Positions 1-4,528 of a stretch of DNA of 4,528 bases are shown here, one piece after another. This stretch comes from a virus (lineage: Duplodnaviria; Heunggongvirae; Uroviricota; Caudoviricetes), in the IMG/VR virus record IMGVR_UViG_2734482537_000011; one strand, given 5' to 3'. The notes under the pieces are model-generated. The model searched no databases and had not been told where the DNA came from. It saw nothing but the letters and a program-made list of their open reading frames with translations. The first letter of the stretch is position 1. Every line of letters starts with the position of its first letter. The translations under genes were made by a program, and so were the position numbers.

Positions 1-41
1 GCTTTGAACTCTTTAGAGTAACGTTGGGTTTTTCTGCTCAT
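1..41 (-). CDS. IS3-family transposase OrfA, 5' end only (MSRKTQRYSKEFK...), runs off the window
   Basis: Reverse complement of 1-41 translates as M S R K T Q R Y S K E F K from an ATG with a well-spaced AGGAG Shine-Dalgarno. The N-terminal pattern is characteristic of IS3-family OrfA helix-turn-helix proteins. Confidence 0.55.
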   Translation of the reverse strand, partial: MSRKTQRYSKEFK

Positions 42-105
42 TATTAGCTCCTTCTGATGCCATTCTATTTCAGGAAGGAGTGTCCGTTAAACTCAGGCTA
101 CCTCA
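1..105 (-). mobile_element. Terminal ~105 bp of an IS3-family insertion sequence (end plus start of OrfA); the element continues past the window start. Boundary at 105 is approximate.
   Basis: Minus-strand ATG at 41 preceded by AGGAG (48-52, 6-nt spacer) opens an ORF reading MSRKTQRYSKEFK..., matching the IS3-family OrfA N-terminal pattern (M-x-K/R...YS-x-EFK). Reading the minus strand from position 105 gives 5'-TGAGGTAGCCTGAGTTTAACGGACAC..., which starts with the 5'-TG typical of IS3-family termini. The ATG lies about 64 bp inside this putative end, a typical IS3 spacing. Confidence 0.45.
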
Positions 106-160
106 GGTTATTCGCTTCTGGGCATGGGCGGATCAACAAATGATAGACGGTAATGCAGAT

Positions 161-181
161 TGTAACGCTCGCGGCGTTACA
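161..181. repeat. Perfect inverted repeat TGTAACGC-N5-GCGTTACA
   Basis: Read directly: tgtaacgc tcgcg gcgttaca. The same octamer core recurs at 371-389 and 405-412. Confidence 0.6.
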
Positions 182-370
182 AAAAGTGCAATAGATCGCA
201 TCACTTTTATGTCTGGTTTTGCTGATGCGTTAATTCAGGTTGGATGGCTGGTCGAAAATGACGGAGGGCTTTCTCTACCTAACTTTGAACGTCATAACGG
301 AAAAAGCTCTAAAAAAAACGGGCGGTTACAAACGAGCGAGTAACAAAAATACGCGAACTGAAACGAAAAG

Positions 371-412
371 GTAACGCTGCCAGCGTTACACAAACGGATC
401 AAAAAGCGTTAC
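371..412. promoter_or_regulatory. Candidate origin iterons: palindrome GTAACGCTG-C-CAGCGTTAC (371-389) plus half-site AGCGTTAC (405-412), inside the linker region of the O-like gene
   Basis: Perfect 9-bp arms with a 1-nt spacer, then another copy of the half-site 16 bp downstream, followed by a GAGGAA repeat and an A-rich stretch. In lambda the origin (iterons plus AT-rich region) lies inside the O gene. Confidence 0.35.
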
Positions 413-414
413 CA

Positions 415-432
415 GAGGAAGAGGAAGAGGAA
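415..432 (+). repeat. (GAGGAA)x3 tandem hexamer, encodes Glu6 in frame 1
   Basis: Read directly: gaggaa gaggaa gaggaa. Confidence 0.9.
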
Positions 433-788
433 GATCTAAATACTGATCTCCCCCTCGCCAAAAACGAGCGTCTAAAAAATTCGAGCCGGAGGCTATTGAG
501 CTGCCCGATTGGTTGCCGGAAACACTCTGGCATGAGTGGGTCCGGTTCAGACAGGCATTGCGAAAACCGATTCGAACGGAGCAGGGCGCTAACGGGGCGA
601 TACGGGAACTGGAAAAATTCCGTCAGCAGGGTTTTACACCTGAGCAGGTGATTCGACACAGCATCGCCAATGAATACCAGGGCCTGTTCGCGCCGAAAGG
701 TGTTCGGCCTGAGACGTTGCTCCGACAGGTTAACACCGTCTCGTTGCCGGACAGTGCGATCCCGCCAGGCTTCAGGGGGTAACGGACC

Positions 789-1219
789 ATGAAAAATATT
801 GCGACAGGCGGCGTTCTGGAACGCATCCGCCGACTGACCCCGCCACATGTAACCGCCCCATTCAGAACGGTAGCGGAGTGGCGCGAGTGGCAACTTGCTG
901 AAGGCCAGAAACGTAGCGAGGAGATCAACCGCCTGAATCGCCAGTTGCGGGTGGAAAAAATTCTGAATCGCTCAGGCATCCAGCCGTTGCACCGTAAATG
1001 CTCGTTTGCGAATTACCAGGTGCAGAACGACGGCCAGCGATACGCGTTAAGCCAGGCGAAATCCATCGCCGATGAACTGATGACCGGGTGTACAAATTTT
1101 GCGTTCAGCGGAAAACCTGGTACCGGGAAGAATCACTTAGCGGCAGCTATCGGGAATCGCCTGCTGAAAGACGGTCAGACAGTGATTGTGGTTACCGTGG
1201 CTGATGTTATGAGCGCCCT
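789..1219 (+). CDS. DnaC-like AAA+ helicase loader (prophage P/DnaC paralogue), N-terminal ~143 codons; 3' end lost in the N-run
   Basis: Translation contains FSGKPGTGKNHLAAAIGNRLLKDGQTVIVVTVADVMSA, a Walker A P-loop and flanking sequence closely matching E. coli DnaC as recalled (FSGKPGTGKNHLAAAICNELL..VADIMSA). The preceding ..RSGIQPLHRKCSFANYQV.. also parallels DnaC. ATG 789 follows SD AGGGGG (774-779). Confidence 0.85.
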
Positions 1220-1469: not shown

Positions 1470-1485
1470 AGTTTCAGGAGGATTT

Positions 1486-1908
1486 ATGGCGAAACCTTTT
1501 ACTCCCGAACAGCGGGAAGAACTGAAGACGCGAATTGTGGAACTCGTGCATCAGGACGGTCGGGTCACGATTCGGCAGTTGTCAGATGAAACAGGTATCA
1601 GTCGTGCGTCTGTCGGTCGCTTATGCATAGAACTGGTCGCAAGTGGTGATGTATATAATTCTGGCTACGGCTTATTCCCGTCTGAACAGGCTCGCAAGGA
1701 CTGGCAAAGCGCCCGCAAAAAACTCTCGAGAGTAAAGGTGAGGAAACCGGTTGTTGTTGATCCGGACCTTATCTGGTCATTACCTGACGGAGAAATACGC
1801 CGCTACGACAGGCGCCTGAATATAATCTGTCGCGAGTGCCGGAAGAGCGAAGCTATGCAGCGTGTACTGGCTTTCTATCAGGGTAATTTTCAGGAGGCGA
1901 TACTGTGA
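1486..1908 (+). CDS. ren: Ren-like winged-helix protein (lambda Ren / Rex-exclusion-resistance family), 140 aa
   Basis: ATG 1486 with AGGAGG at 1476-1481. It sits immediately downstream of the helicase-loader gene, as ren sits after P in lambda. The C-terminus ..NIICRECRKSEAMQRVLAFYQG resembles the lambda Ren C-terminus as I recall it (..NLVFKECRQSAAMKRVLAVYGV), and the N-terminal TIRQLSDETGISRASVGRLCIELVASG looks like a winged HTH. Similarity is from memory and needs an alignment. Confidence 0.5.
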   Translation: MAKPFTPEQREELKTRIVELVHQDGRVTIRQLSDETGISRASVGRLCIELVASGDVYNSGYGLFPSEQARKDWQSARKKLSRVKVRKPVVVDPDLIWSLPDGEIRRYDRRLNIICRECRKSEAMQRVLAFYQGNFQEAIL

Positions 1909-1965
1909 ATGAAATTAGCTATCAGGCTTCAATTACCGCTGGCATTCGCATCAAAGGAGAGGAGC

Positions 1966-2322
1966 ATGGAAATAAAACCAGAAGATGAGTTAAGCAATAT
2001 CGTTTTATTTCCGGTAAAAGAGGATGACCCTCGTAATCAGGTTAATTTTCTTTATGAGCCATCGGAAAGACCATATTGCCATCACGCCTCTGTACGGGTT
2101 GACGAAAAAGAGCGTCAGGTCCGCTGTAAAATCTGCGGTGCGGTTGTGGAGCCGTTTGACTGGATGCTCTCTGTGGCAAAAAGAGAAACCAGACTGGCAG
2201 ATGATGTAAGGCTATTGCGCCAGGAGGAACAGGAAAGGCGGAGAAATATAGAAAAGCTGATACAGATTGAGCGTAACGCGAAAGCGCGGATACGCAGGGC
2301 GACAAAATCCAGAACTGAATAA
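1966..2322 (+). CDS. Hypothetical protein with a zinc-ribbon-like motif and a C-terminal charged coiled-coil-like segment (118 aa from ATG 1966; 137 aa if ATG 1909)
   Basis: Open frame 1909-2322. ATG 1966 has AAGGAG at 1954-1959 with a 6-nt spacer; ATG 1909 abuts the upstream stop and has no SD. Contains YCHHASVRVDEKERQVRCKICGAV (C-H-H ... C-x-x-C) followed by the basic/acidic stretch LLRQEEQERRRNIEKLIQIERNAKARIRR. No family recognised. Confidence 0.5.
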   Translation: MEIKPEDELSNIVLFPVKEDDPRNQVNFLYEPSERPYCHHASVRVDEKERQVRCKICGAVVEPFDWMLSVAKRETRLADDVRLLRQEEQERRRNIEKLIQIERNAKARIRRATKSRTE

Positions 2323-2469
2323 TTAAATTTAGCACTGTTAAAAATTTAATCCTTAACCGGAGGGATTTCTGCACCCTCAAATCATCAGGAGACCACCCGA
2401 AAGGGCGGGGAGCAGTCACACATCTGTTTCCGATAGCCCCGTTCTAATGCTACACTCTTTGATATTTTT

Positions 2470-3156
2470 ATGACCCCAATAAACATATTTATGACAGTTG
2501 CTGATTTCAAACGGCCCAAATTGGAGCTCCCAAACGGGGCAAACAAACTACTACTGCACTCTTGCTGTGCTCCATGTTCCGGTGAGGTGATGGAGGCGCT
2601 TCAGGCCTCGGGAATCGACTACACCATCTTTTTCTACAACCCGAACATTCATCCTCAGAAAGAGTATTTAATTCGTAAGGATGAGAATATTCGCTTTGCT
2701 GAACAACACGGCGTGCCGTTTATTGATGCTGATTACGACACAGACAACTGGTTTGAACGAGCCAAAGGAATGGAATGGGAGCCCGAACGAGGGATCCGTT
2801 GCACCATGTGTTTTGACATGCGTTTTGAGCGGACAGCGCTGTACGCCGCTGAAAATGGTTTCAGTGTGATCAGCAGTTCACTGGGCATTTCACGCTGGAA
2901 AAATATGCAGCAGGTTAACGACTGTGGGCGGCGAGCCGTCGCGCATTATCCGGGCATGGTGTACTGGGATTATAACTGGCGCAAGCAGGGCGGCTCGTCC
3001 CGTATGATTGAAATCAGCAAGCGCGAAAAATTCTATCAGCAGGAATATTGTGGCTGTGTGTATTCTCTGCGCGATACCAATCTACACCGCAAATCTCAGG
3101 GACGCCCTCTTATCAAAATTGGTCAACTCCACTACGGTAAAGAAGAGAAGGAGTGA
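2470..3156 (+). CDS. queH: Epoxyqueuosine reductase QueH homologue (DUF208); alternative start at ATG 2491
   Basis: N-terminal [11 protein letters not shown] is the hallmark cysteine motif of DUF208/QueH; further Cys pairs at RCTMC and YCGC fit Fe-S cluster ligands. Neither ATG 2470 nor 2491 has an obvious Shine-Dalgarno, so the start is uncertain. Confidence 0.8.
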
Positions 3157-3175
3157 TTTTATGGGGCACCTTTCT

Positions 3176-3205
3176 GATTGATTTCATATTGGCGAGGTAA
3201 GTAGA
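3176..3205 (+). promoter_or_regulatory. Candidate sigma70 promoter of the hok/mok mRNA (-35 TTGATT, 18-bp spacer, -10 TAGAAT)
   Basis: TTGATT at 3176-3181 and TAGAAT at 3200-3205. The predicted start near 3212 precedes GCGGGTGCTTGAGGCTATCTGC, which resembles the 5' end of plasmid R1 hok mRNA as recalled (GGCGCUUGAGGCUUUCUGCC). Confidence 0.35.
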
Positions 3206-3269
3206 ATGACTGCGGGTGCTTGAGGCTATCTGCTTCAGGCATGAACACCAAAAGGCAGATAGAGAAAAG

Positions 3270-3335
3270 CCCCAGTTAACATTACGCGTCCGGCAAGACG
3301 CTTAACATTAATCTGAGGCCAATTTCATGCTTTGC
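3270..3335 (-). ncRNA. sok: Sok-like antisense RNA (coordinates approximate; promoter on the - strand at about 3342-3370)
   Basis: On the minus strand: -35 TTGCCT (+ strand 3365-3370), 17-bp spacer, -10 TAACCT (+ strand 3342-3347), placed as in R1 hok/sok where the Sok promoter lies inside the mok start region. The element TAAGAGGCTA (+ strand TAGCCTCTTA, 3346-3355) appears conserved with R1 as recalled. The 3' end was not identified. Confidence 0.35.
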
Positions 3336-3539
3336 ACATGTAGGTTAGCCTCTTACATGCCGAAAGGCAAGGAGAAGCAGGCTATGAAGCAGCAAAAGGC
3401 GATGTTAATCGCCCTGATCGTCATCTGTTTAACCGTCATAGTGACGGCACTGGTAACGAGGAAAGACCTCTGTGAGGTACGAATCCGAACCGGCCAGACG
3501 GAGGTCGCTGTCTTCGTAGACTACGAATCCAGGAAGTAA
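3327..3539 (+). CDS. mok: Mok-like reading frame (N-terminally extended, in frame with hok), 70 aa
   Basis: ATG 3327 in frame with hok gives MLCTCRLASYMPKGKEKQA-MKQQK.., parallel to E. coli MokC (MLNTCR...KEKRA-MKQHK..) as recalled. Confidence 0.5.
   Translation: MLCTCRLASYMPKGKEKQAMKQQKAMLIALIVICLTVIVTALVTRKDLCEVRIRTGQTEVAVFVDYESRK
3384..3539 (+). CDS. hok: Hok/Gef family type I toxin, 51 aa
   Basis: MKQQKAMLIALIVICLTVIVTALVTRKDLCEVRIRTGQTEVAVFVDYESRK is near-identical over most of its length to E. coli HokD/HokC as recalled, including the transmembrane segment and conserved Cys. AGGAG at 3370-3374 lies 9 nt upstream of ATG 3384. Confidence 0.88.
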   Translation: MKQQKAMLIALIVICLTVIVTALVTRKDLCEVRIRTGQTEVAVFVDYESRK

Positions 3540-3616
3540 GAGTGACCGGGCGGGGAGCTGATCCCATCCCCGCCCACCTCTGATGTGTCAGGCATCCTCA
3601 ACGCACCCGCACTTAA

Positions 3617-3659
3617 CCCGCCCATCGCTGTGATCTCTCAGCGTTTCGGCGGGTTTTTT
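3617..3659 (+). terminator. Rho-independent terminator of the hok mRNA
   Basis: CCCGCC (3617-3622) pairs with GGCGGG (3648-3653), with an inner CGCTG/CAGCG stem, followed by TTTTTT (3654-3659) and further T-rich sequence. Confidence 0.6.
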
Positions 3660-3679
3660 GTTGTTTATTTCCGGTGAAT

Positions 3680-3707
3680 TTGATTCGCGCACCTTCGCAG
3701 ATAGAAT
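3680..3707 (+). promoter_or_regulatory. Candidate sigma70 promoter (-35 TTGATT, 16-bp spacer, -10 TAGAAT) upstream of the 95-aa ORF
   Basis: TTGATT at 3680-3685 and TAGAAT at 3702-3707, located just after the hok terminator and about 80 bp before ATG 3789. Same hexamers as the hok promoter candidate. Confidence 0.3.
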
Positions 3708-3788
3708 CGACTCACTTAAGTAGCGCGCAGGGAGAAGAGGGATGGACCCCGAACAGGGGAGAGCTATTTATCTGGAAGGATTCTGAAG

Positions 3789-4076
3789 ATGAAAATCGAA
3801 GAATTGCGTGAAATTTTTAGTGAAAATGGCCTCTATGCTGTGCGCGTTGAGAATGGAGCGATTGTCAGCCATTGCCGCATTAGATGTTTGCAATCTCAAC
3901 AAAGGAAGAGCGGTGCTGTGTTATTTTATTTTTGTAATGGACTTCTGACGGACGGTTTTATTTTGCGTGAGGACGAATTTGTCACATCATTACGGGTTTT
4001 GAAAGAGATTGGTTTTAAGGCTGGTTTTCTGCTTTTGCTGAAGAATAAACTCATCTACAATCTTGAGCAGGATTGA
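3789..4076 (+). CDS. Hypothetical protein, 95 aa, AT-rich orphan gene
   Basis: ATG 3789 with GGAAGGA at 3776-3782. Intact ORF with no recognisable motif. Composition is visibly more AT-rich than the flanking genes, with several T-runs. Confidence 0.45.
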   Translation: MKIEELREIFSENGLYAVRVENGAIVSHCRIRCLQSQQRKSGAVLFYFCNGLLTDGFILREDEFVTSLRVLKEIGFKAGFLLLLKNKLIYNLEQD

Positions 4077-4114
4077 ACTCCTGCTGTGTAACACCGTGCC
4101 ACCGGAGAAAGCCG

Positions 4115-4468
4115 ATGGCACATATACAACTGGTCAAACAAACCTCTTCCGGATTACTTCTCCCGGCGACGCCGGAGAGTTGCGATTTTCTGCATCAAAT
4201 CAAAATAGGTGAGTGGATACACGCAGACTTTAAGCGTGTGTGTAACTACGCATTCCACAAGCGTTTTTTCAAACTCCTGCAACTGGGTTTCGATTACTGG
4301 ACTCCGGTCGGTGGGGCGATCACGCCTCGCGAACGAAAACTGGTGTCCGGTTTCGTTGATTACCTGTGTGAATCAGTAGGCCGGGAACATACGCCAGCTC
4401 TGAGCGAAGCCGCAGAGCAATTGAGGTGTACTGGCAATAGCGGACACTACCATTTGTTCTTTTTTTAA
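4115..4468 (+). CDS. DUF1367-like lambdoid nin-region protein (start ATG 4115, not the TTG at 4073); possibly truncated or frameshifted at its 3' end
   Basis: GGAG at 4104-4107 lies 7 nt upstream of ATG 4115 (MAHIQLVKQTSSGLLLPATPE..). The segment FHKRFFKLLQLGFDYWTPVGGAITPRERKL matches my recollection of the conserved core of DUF1367 phage proteins. The ORF ends at a T7 tract while frame 1 stays open to the window end. Confidence 0.5.
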   Translation: MAHIQLVKQTSSGLLLPATPESCDFLHQIKIGEWIHADFKRVCNYAFHKRFFKLLQLGFDYWTPVGGAITPRERKLVSGFVDYLCESVGREHTPALSEAAEQLRCTGNSGHYHLFFF

Positions 4469-4528
4469 GCAGCCATCTGATGATATTTTTCCCTGAAGGC
4501 TGCCGGGGAGATATTCCCCAGACGAGAG

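Follow-up and report, generated by a model that had tools for sequence, protein, structure and literature searches.

Phage lambda has its origin of replication in the middle of O, its initiator gene. The 'replisome organizer' genes of Gram-positive phages (SPP1 gene 38 with oriL, lactococcal rep) also contain the repeats of their own products, but they belong to other protein families and carry other repeats than the initiator considered here. Iteron plasmids have direct iterons at the origin and an inverted repeat at the rep promoter, with a division of labour between monomers and dimers that serves here as an analogy only. For oriJ of the Escherichia coli K-12 Rac prophage, the cloned region is said to replicate autonomously, a statement for which Potrykus et al. 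2000 is cited. Two lambda iterons together with the neighbouring AT-rich tract are enough for unwinding (PMC7466680), and an active origin, oriJ, has been reported for the Rac prophage (PMC3945230). Full-text literature searches (oriJ, YdaU, iterons) located no sequence-level description of oriJ. The stretch of DNA analysed here (the window) comprises 4,528 nucleotides of the IMG/VR virus record IMGVR_UViG_2734482537_000011 and is a 4.5-kb piece of a Rac-like lambdoid prophage, containing a remnant of a YdaU-family replication initiator gene. Palindromes of GTAACGC within this gene are probably iterons, bound by the N-terminal domain of the initiator at a lambda-style origin. On the strength of the sequence comparisons below, we put the probability of this reading at roughly two in three (0.68).

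The unit common to these repeats is a heptamer, GTAACGC/GCGTTAC, present in five copies at 161-412 and in a sixth at 2273. Its expectation in the whole window is 0.41, and six or more copies were obtained in 0/200 shuffles. The sixth copy (2273-2279) is isolated within a zinc-ribbon open reading frame (ORF; 1909-2322) and is probably there by chance. The original prediction was built on an octamer, GTAACGCT/AGCGTTAC, said to occur five times. Only four of these copies are exact (162+, 371+, 382- and 405-), and the one at 173-180, GTAACGCC, has one mismatch. The two perfect palindromes that it described reduce to one, the 9+1+9 element at 371-389 (site 2), while the element at 161-181 (site 1) consists of two inverted arms, TTGTAACGC / GCGTTACAA (160-168 / 174-182), with a non-symmetric 5-nt spacer between them. 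Both are versions of a 19-bp element, GTAACGC-N5-GCGTTAC, and compared as direct repeats they are 83% identical over 24 nt. A further half-site placed at 405-412 is indeed present and spans 405-413, and the (GAGGAA)x3 repeat noted after the second cluster belongs to a run of 21 purines at 414-434. Within 100-900, stability is lowest in the 30-mers that begin at 413-422. The sequence GATC occurs five times (131, 194, 397, 433 and 445) in 320 nt of the repeat region, ~4x the random expectation.

Homologues of the initiator are numerous (1203 at E <= 1e-3), a similarity that places it in the YdaU family. The loci compared consist of 27 genomic loci, 6 phage loci and two circular phage-like 'plasmids', and range over Enterobacterales, phages of Xanthomonas, Pseudomonas, Ralstonia and Vibrio, Pusillimonas, Planctomycetota and a Saccharibacteria metagenome-assembled genome (MAG). 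The palindromes are present in intact initiator homologues, and in 24 genes the heptamer is found at the same two positions, one encoding a disordered loop of the N-terminal domain and the other the inter-domain linker. Cluster 1 (nt ~149-180) is typically arranged > > <, and cluster 2 (nt ~335-430) contains up to > > > < ... < with 12-nt phasing. All convergent pairs in these genes (47/47) are separated by a 5-nt spacer, with the extended consensus GTAACGCTg.cAGCGTTACA. The density of the heptamer is 6.4/kb inside the genes and 0.19/kb in 102 kb of other flanking DNA, where it is near the random value of 0.12/kb, so that the repeat is not common elsewhere. An additional 26 copies are located in the 80 nt upstream of the initiator genes.

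The two positions also share a peptide, N-A-x-x-V-T, which is conserved at both places in the protein alignment. The repeats could thus be a by-product of a needed motif, (G/C/S)-N-A-x-x-V-T, and have no function at the DNA level. However, when synonymous codons were permuted within each of 22 genes from Enterobacterales, from Xanthomonas and Pseudomonas phages, from Planctomycetota and from a Saccharibacteria MAG, preserving both the protein and the codon usage, 20.9 heptamers were expected and 123 were observed, a six-fold excess of the exact heptamer that is significant in every gene (p <= 0.011). Among the 65 copies of GCGTTAC, 45 are read as xGC-GTT-AC (S/G-V-T) and 19 in another frame as GCG-TTA-C (A-L-P). 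The residue preceding N-A varies between G, C and S, all of which can be spelled NGT as the heptamer requires. This permutation excess, the fixed spacer, the use of two reading frames and the NGT-spellable residue before N-A indicate a constraint on the DNA itself. Both encoded segments are also predicted to be disordered, divergent members swap the peptide (T-N-G..S-V-S; V-D..S-T) yet retain a dyad repeat, and the identical 19-bp site occurs in non-coding DNA upstream of the gene. A peptide requirement is therefore scarcely credible as the source of the repeats, and it was rejected as the main explanation on the basis of the permutation excess, the second frame and the non-coding copies.

In the most divergent members a different short dyad repeat replaces GTAACGC, and it is altered in both clusters together (Table 1; each p <= 0.015 by synonymous permutation). 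The encoded peptide is then wholly different (e.g. G-N-A..S-V-T becomes V-D..S-T), with the dyad and the two-cluster layout kept. As a correlation only, the repeat groups differ in helix 2 of the initiator (GKLxRxW vs GGLHSAW or GRLHTFW) and in the basic segment past the beta-hairpin (RALTNxRV vs RAxDAxRKR). A natural domain swap is provided by YdaU of K-12 Rac, which shares 81% identity over the C-terminal 124 residues but has an unrelated N-terminal domain, DUF1376, and TGTTCAA(ACA) repeats instead of GTAACGC in its linker DNA; K-12 oriJ thus does not share the N-terminal domain and repeats described here. The neighbouring genes vary among loci (methylase, Rha, cII-like or none), leaving the initiator as the sole gene common to all. 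Because the repeat type tracks the N-terminal domain and only the initiator is always present, the simplest reading of these sequences is that the initiator would bind its own repeats.

Instead of the initiator, the sites could be imagined to bind another factor, of the host or of the phage, for instance a nucleoid protein, or they could be a methylase or restriction target or be used in packaging or recombination. Nothing points to such a factor directly, although a cluster of GATC sites is nearby (5 in 131-448). The repeat sequence follows the type of initiator N-terminal domain across phyla and in the K-12 swap, while neighbours and hosts differ, and it is unlikely that Planctomycetota, Xanthomonas and E. 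coli share a host factor that recognises GTAACGC. Binding by a foreign factor is very unlikely, and it was rejected as the main explanation on the ground that repeat type follows the initiator N-terminal domain.

The arrangement of the repeats is similar to that in lambda, as the original prediction proposed. The lambda iterons occupy nt 349-433 of O, and an 18-nt A/G run comes after them; here the array occupies nt 368-410 of the initiator gene, and in both cases this is DNA for the inter-domain linker. The unit is a 19-bp dyad-symmetric repeat in both (for lambda, see PMC7466680). On the promoter-distal side is a purine-rich, easily melted tract (AAAAGAAAAAAGAAAAGA past iteron 4 in lambda, AGAGGAAGAGGAAGAGGAAGA here), the gene for a helicase-loading partner lies downstream, and the repeat type goes with the N-terminal domain in natural hybrids. 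However, the iteron sequences are unrelated and the initiator has no detectable kinship to O. The linker array here also has fewer complete repeats, a second array is located in the N-terminal-domain coding region and often a third upstream of the gene, and the loader is of the DnaC/IstB-type AAA+ class rather than lambda P. Judged from its sequence, the array has the layout of ori-lambda, that is, mid-gene 19-bp dyads followed by a putatively easily melted tract. By analogy, the element would work like ori-lambda while standing outside the ori-lambda family.

The purine tract is itself a recurrent feature. A purine-only run begins <= ~10 nt past the last half-site in about 18/29 tabulated genes, and the remaining genes have either a longer gap (e.g. 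L008, L017) or merely a short run (L031, L036). In Enterobacterial members the tract reads AGAGGAAGAGGAAG... and encodes poly-Glu, and in others it is AGAGAAGAGAAGAGAAGAGAAGA, encoding R-E-E-K-R-R-E. Outside Enterobacterales the Arg codon is AGA, even in the Xanthomonas phage and the Pusillimonas element. The tract is a candidate for the unwinding element.

In 11/22 intact loci, a further 19-bp GTAACGC-N5-GCGTTAC site precedes the initiator start codon by 13-42 nt (Table 1), and one of these (L017) has three to four copies of it. The site is absent wherever the initiator gene abuts an upstream gene. A sigma-70 promoter scan around the upstream site found none. The upstream site, cluster 1 and cluster 2 are spaced about 190-210 bp apart. 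By analogy with iteron plasmids, the third site suggests autoregulation and/or looping. The resemblance to these plasmids (F RepE, pPS10 RepA, P1 RepA) includes the mixture of direct and inverted copies of one short motif, the dyad copy shortly before the initiator gene and a binding domain that is here predicted to be winged-helix-like. Unlike in the plasmids, the sites lie inside coding sequence and the Pfam search revealed no Rep_3-type homology of the initiator.

The third upstream site and the cluster spacing are also the main reason for keeping one rival alive, namely that the palindromes serve purely as operators. Three spaced palindromes would then be bound by the initiator or by a different regulator of the phage, repressing or attenuating ydaU-ydaV, with the true origin elsewhere in the prophage. 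A position beside the ribosome-binding region in about half of the intact loci and a cluster distance of about 190-270 bp, typical of looping operators, fit this explanation, and the published 'oriJ' amplicon is in ydaV. However, where the gene abuts its upstream neighbour and the upstream site is gone, both internal clusters and the purine tract persist. The neighbours vary among the loci, which have only the initiator in common, and the linker position, 19-bp dyad and adjoining purine/low-stability tract match the layout of the lambda origin. Autoregulation and origin function are in addition compatible, since iteron plasmids use both. Operators alone are an unlikely explanation of the sites.

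Another possibility is that the palindromes form hairpins, as RNA or single-stranded DNA, with a role in mRNA stability, processing or translational control of the ydaU transcript. Every palindrome folds at z -2.9 to -4.1 relative to shuffles, the complementarity of the arms is preserved through the changes in divergent members, and a terminator-like score is obtained on the - strand for site 2 and the T-run after it. However, terminator-like hits are at chance level (1 vs 0.8 expected), and the arm sequence itself is invariant from Enterobacterales to Planctomycetota, beyond mere pairing. The arrays also contain unpaired direct copies at 12-nt phasing (> > > < ... <), the TGTTCAA repeats of K-12 YdaU are mainly direct, and a change of motif affects every copy, including those that are unpaired. 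Hairpins are highly improbable as the function of the repeats; the invariant arms, unpaired copies and concerted change led to their rejection as the main explanation.

The initiator matches PHROG 2509, 'replication initiation protein', over residues 1-262 (E 4e-89), and the RefSeq name of the intact allele is 'phage replication initiator YdaU family protein'. No Pfam family was found for it at E <= 0.01, and the N-terminal domain is without a family in Pfam or NCBIfam. PHROG 678, 'replication initiation O-like', matches only the linker and C-terminal part (residues 102-236), and hhalign comparison of the family profile with lambda O gave a probability of 0.4% (E 0.14), which does not support membership in the lambda O family. 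Since there is no detectable sequence relation to lambda O, the term 'O-like' used in the original prediction is appropriate for the function of the gene, a phage replication initiator, but not for its ancestry. An AlphaFold2 (AF2) model based on a 33-sequence alignment (mean predicted local distance difference test score, pLDDT, of 66) consists of an ordered N-terminal domain (residues ~10-95: four helices and a beta-hairpin), a disordered linker (96-160, pLDDT <50) and a three-helix C-terminal domain (165-235). The second cluster therefore falls in the inter-domain linker, as had been supposed, and site 1 encodes a low-confidence loop (AF2 residues 48-57, pLDDT <50). The DNA-binding domain of the initiator is predicted to be winged-helix-like.

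The only match in a PDB sequence search was the DnaT-like C-terminal tail (E 0.23). This tail, ...PDSAIPPGFRG (745-782), is nearly identical to the C-tail of the E. coli primosomal protein DnaT (PDB 2ru8, 6aep, 9zbt; E 0.2-0.75). The similarity hints at a common docking peptide for the helicase machinery, with a putative recruiting role. Some YdaU-family alleles (P0011-P0058, 376-380 residues) carry in the linker a ~114-residue insert with no Pfam match directly past the purine tract, and its position is exactly that of the 10-nt deletion in the window. A homologue from a Gallionella MAG has an HNH endonuclease domain in the linker (coordinates for linker insertions, L028:779-1906). Insertion of domains seems to be especially frequent in the origin linker.

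If the palindromes are iterons of a lambda-style origin, initiator dimers would occupy the 19-bp dyads GTAACGC-N5-GCGTTAC and the half-sites beside them, which have 12-nt phasing. The linker array (370-413) sits against the polypurine low-stability tract (414-448), which would melt, and the C-terminal domain with its DnaT-like tail would bring in host DnaB via the adjacent DnaC-like YdaV. The array ~200 bp upstream (160-182) and the third site before the start codon would probably add cooperative or looping contacts and autoregulation. The comparative tests support the original proposal of a candidate prophage origin within the initiator gene, the activity of which we infer.

Several features weigh against this reading. 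The linker array is short, containing one full palindrome and one to three half-sites where lambda has four tandem iterons. The sites form two or three clusters ~200 bp apart, which also fits an autoregulatory operator set, and the upstream cluster overlaps the translation start region. The one published 'oriJ' amplicon that was located is within K-12 ydaV and not ydaU. As RNA, the palindromes can also form hairpins of -11 to -16 kcal/mol, and the purine tract is 43-50% GC and so not strongly AT-rich. Finally, no DnaA boxes (TTATCCACA or TTWTNCACA) are present in window 1-1200, so that the region does not resemble a DnaA-dependent origin; the lambda origin likewise needs no DnaA box.

The K-12 Rac prophage is of the same type, with the same gene order (ydaS/T - ydaU - ydaV), the same ydaV and the closely similar YdaU C-terminal part described above; it differs in the DUF1376 domain and in the linker repeats. 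In K-12 ydaU (L031:3472-3580) the TGTTCAA(ACA) repeats are both direct and inverted in the linker, with one copy at nt 149, and they are candidate iterons of the classical oriJ. The ydaV gene was considered as the mapped oriJ because the published 'oriJ' polymerase chain reaction primers map within K-12 ydaV, and was rejected, as a convincing repeat family was not found there. A search of plasmids for autonomous replicons driven by the module yielded the two circular phage-like 'plasmids' only, which is weak support at best. These are L039 (E. coli pE16EC1016-8) and L040 (Pusillimonas sp. T7-7, a 41-kb 'plasmid'), both circular. Each contains the initiator module, its repeats laid out as at the other loci, and resembles a circular phage genome or a phage-plasmid.

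In the window itself the repeat element is a decayed, orphan relic within a pseudogene (Table 1). An IS600 end is present at each side (1-105 and ~4422-4528), so that a 4.3-kb prophage remnant lies between two IS600 copies, the left cutting the initiator gene and the right a DUF1367 gene. The reference alleles were those of COL60J (annotated under the RefSeq name given above) and phage Rac 442/2, and the alignment of the window to intact alleles begins at window 104-106. The IS600 end has replaced 103 nt at the start of the initiator gene together with the upstream 19-bp site of intact loci; the latter is missing from the window as a consequence of this truncation. The two frame changes originally noticed in or beside the repeat region are borne out by comparison with the intact alleles (A8 vs A6 at 311-318, and loss of TCCCCCTAAA at ~447) and flank the second cluster. 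Because 103 nt are missing at the 5' end, two A residues have been gained by slippage and 10 nt have been deleted, this copy is a pseudogene and does not contain an intact YdaU-family ORF. The element is a relic because the initiator gene is truncated by IS600 and twice frameshifted, the upstream site is lost and one C-tract beside the purine tract has been removed. For the element to fire, a related initiator would have to be provided in trans. The closest complete genomes are E. coli FDAARGOS_944 and FDAARGOS_943 (99.9% over 1470-4421, 98.8% over 105-1219), in which the initiator gene is full length.

Table 1. Coordinates of the repeat element, its surroundings and its equivalents at other loci (window positions unless a locus is named).
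Feature	Position	Strand	Remarks
IS600 end, start of orfA (MSRKTQRYSKEFKA)	1..105	-	100% match to many sites annotated 'IS3-like element IS600 family transposase'
YdaU-family phage replication initiator remnant (pseudogene)	106..782	+	5'-truncated, two frame changes; 98-99% DNA identity to intact 262-aa alleles
Degenerate half-site GTAATGC	150..156	+	GTAACGC here in phage Rac 442/2 and most homologues; next half-site 12 nt downstream (pattern 149> 161> 175<)
Site 1, GTAACGC-tcgcg-GCGTTAC	160..182		Core 162-180, 9-nt complementary arms; encodes C-N-A-R-G-V-T in N-terminal-domain loop
A8 run	311..318	+	+2 frameshift; A6 in intact alleles
Two weak half-sites	322..345		GCGGTTACA at 322-330; GCGAGTAACA at 336-345 (intact alleles: GCGAGTTACA); pattern 322< 337<
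Site 2, GTAACGCTG-C-CAGCGTTAC	370..390		Perfect palindrome, 9+1+9, at 371-389; encodes G-N-A-A-S-V-T in disordered linker
Extra half-site AGCGTTACC	405..413	-	Other reading frame (K-A-L-P); purine tract immediately beyond
Polypurine tract AGAGGAAGAGGAAGAGGAAGA	414..434	+	(GAGGAA)x3, 21-nt purine-only; candidate unwinding element
A/T-rich segment GATCTAAATACTGATC	433..448		Two GATC sites; third GATC at 397-400
10-nt deletion junction	446..449	+	TCCCCCTAAA lost at ~447; one of two C-tract repeats gone, frame shifted
ydaV, 5' part	789..1219	+	DnaC-like helicase loader, replication-module partner; intact allele: NCBIfam PRK12377 1e-153, DnaC 7e-91
Third site, COL60J (...aaatGTAACGCtgcgaGCGTTACaaggtgaaaacaaATG)	L001:3866-3884		Equivalents in L002, L006, L008-L011, L015, L017, L018, L020
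Variant repeat CTAACG/CGTTAG	L021, L027		Two Planctomycetota loci
Variant repeat TGTCAC/GTGACA	L029		Paraglaciecola MAG; also in a Vibrio phage
Variant repeat GTCCGC/GCGGAC	55> 66> 79< 101< and 334> 345> 358< 369<		Salmonella phage epsilon15
Variant repeat GTAGAC/GTCTAC			Ralstonia phage Raharianne

The remainder of the window contains further genes of the prophage. A 250-nt N run (1220-1469) covers the middle of ydaV, the rest of which runs into this mask. Downstream of ydaV are, in order, a DUF977 gene, the zinc-ribbon ORF, queH, a hok/mok toxin locus, a small ORF and the DUF1367 gene. The queH gene (2470-3156; Pfam E 2e-65) encodes epoxyqueuosine reductase, a tRNA-modification enzyme carried as phage cargo. 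The toxin locus downstream of it (3327-3539) is of the hok/mok type I class and is annotated HokD in the closest genomes.

The practical meaning of these observations for the window itself is modest, and their wider interest lies in the family. Rac-like prophages are among the commonest in E. coli and Shigella, and a sequence-level definition of their origin was not found in the literature searched. The 19-bp site, the array layout and the purine tract together provide a testable origin for the family, including epsilon15-like, TL-2011b-like, Xanthomonas CP2-like and Ralstonia phages. For annotation, the 'NAxxVT' and poly-E/REEKRRE segments of YdaU-family genes would be understood as shaped by DNA function. 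The natural specificity variants would allow the co-evolution of initiator and site to be studied where the sites overlap the coding sequence of the initiator. A more general proposal is tentative, and we hold it at somewhat less than even odds: across the family, the initiator may have an array of its own binding sites in its own gene and leader, ~200 bp apart, with one array dictating the loop sequence within the very DNA-binding domain that reads it, with changes of specificity rewriting arrays and encoded peptide in concert, and with an unwinding tract made of purines only. If true, this multi-array, self-encoding layout would be an origin architecture not described so far and would offer a clean natural setting in which to study initiator/iteron co-evolution.

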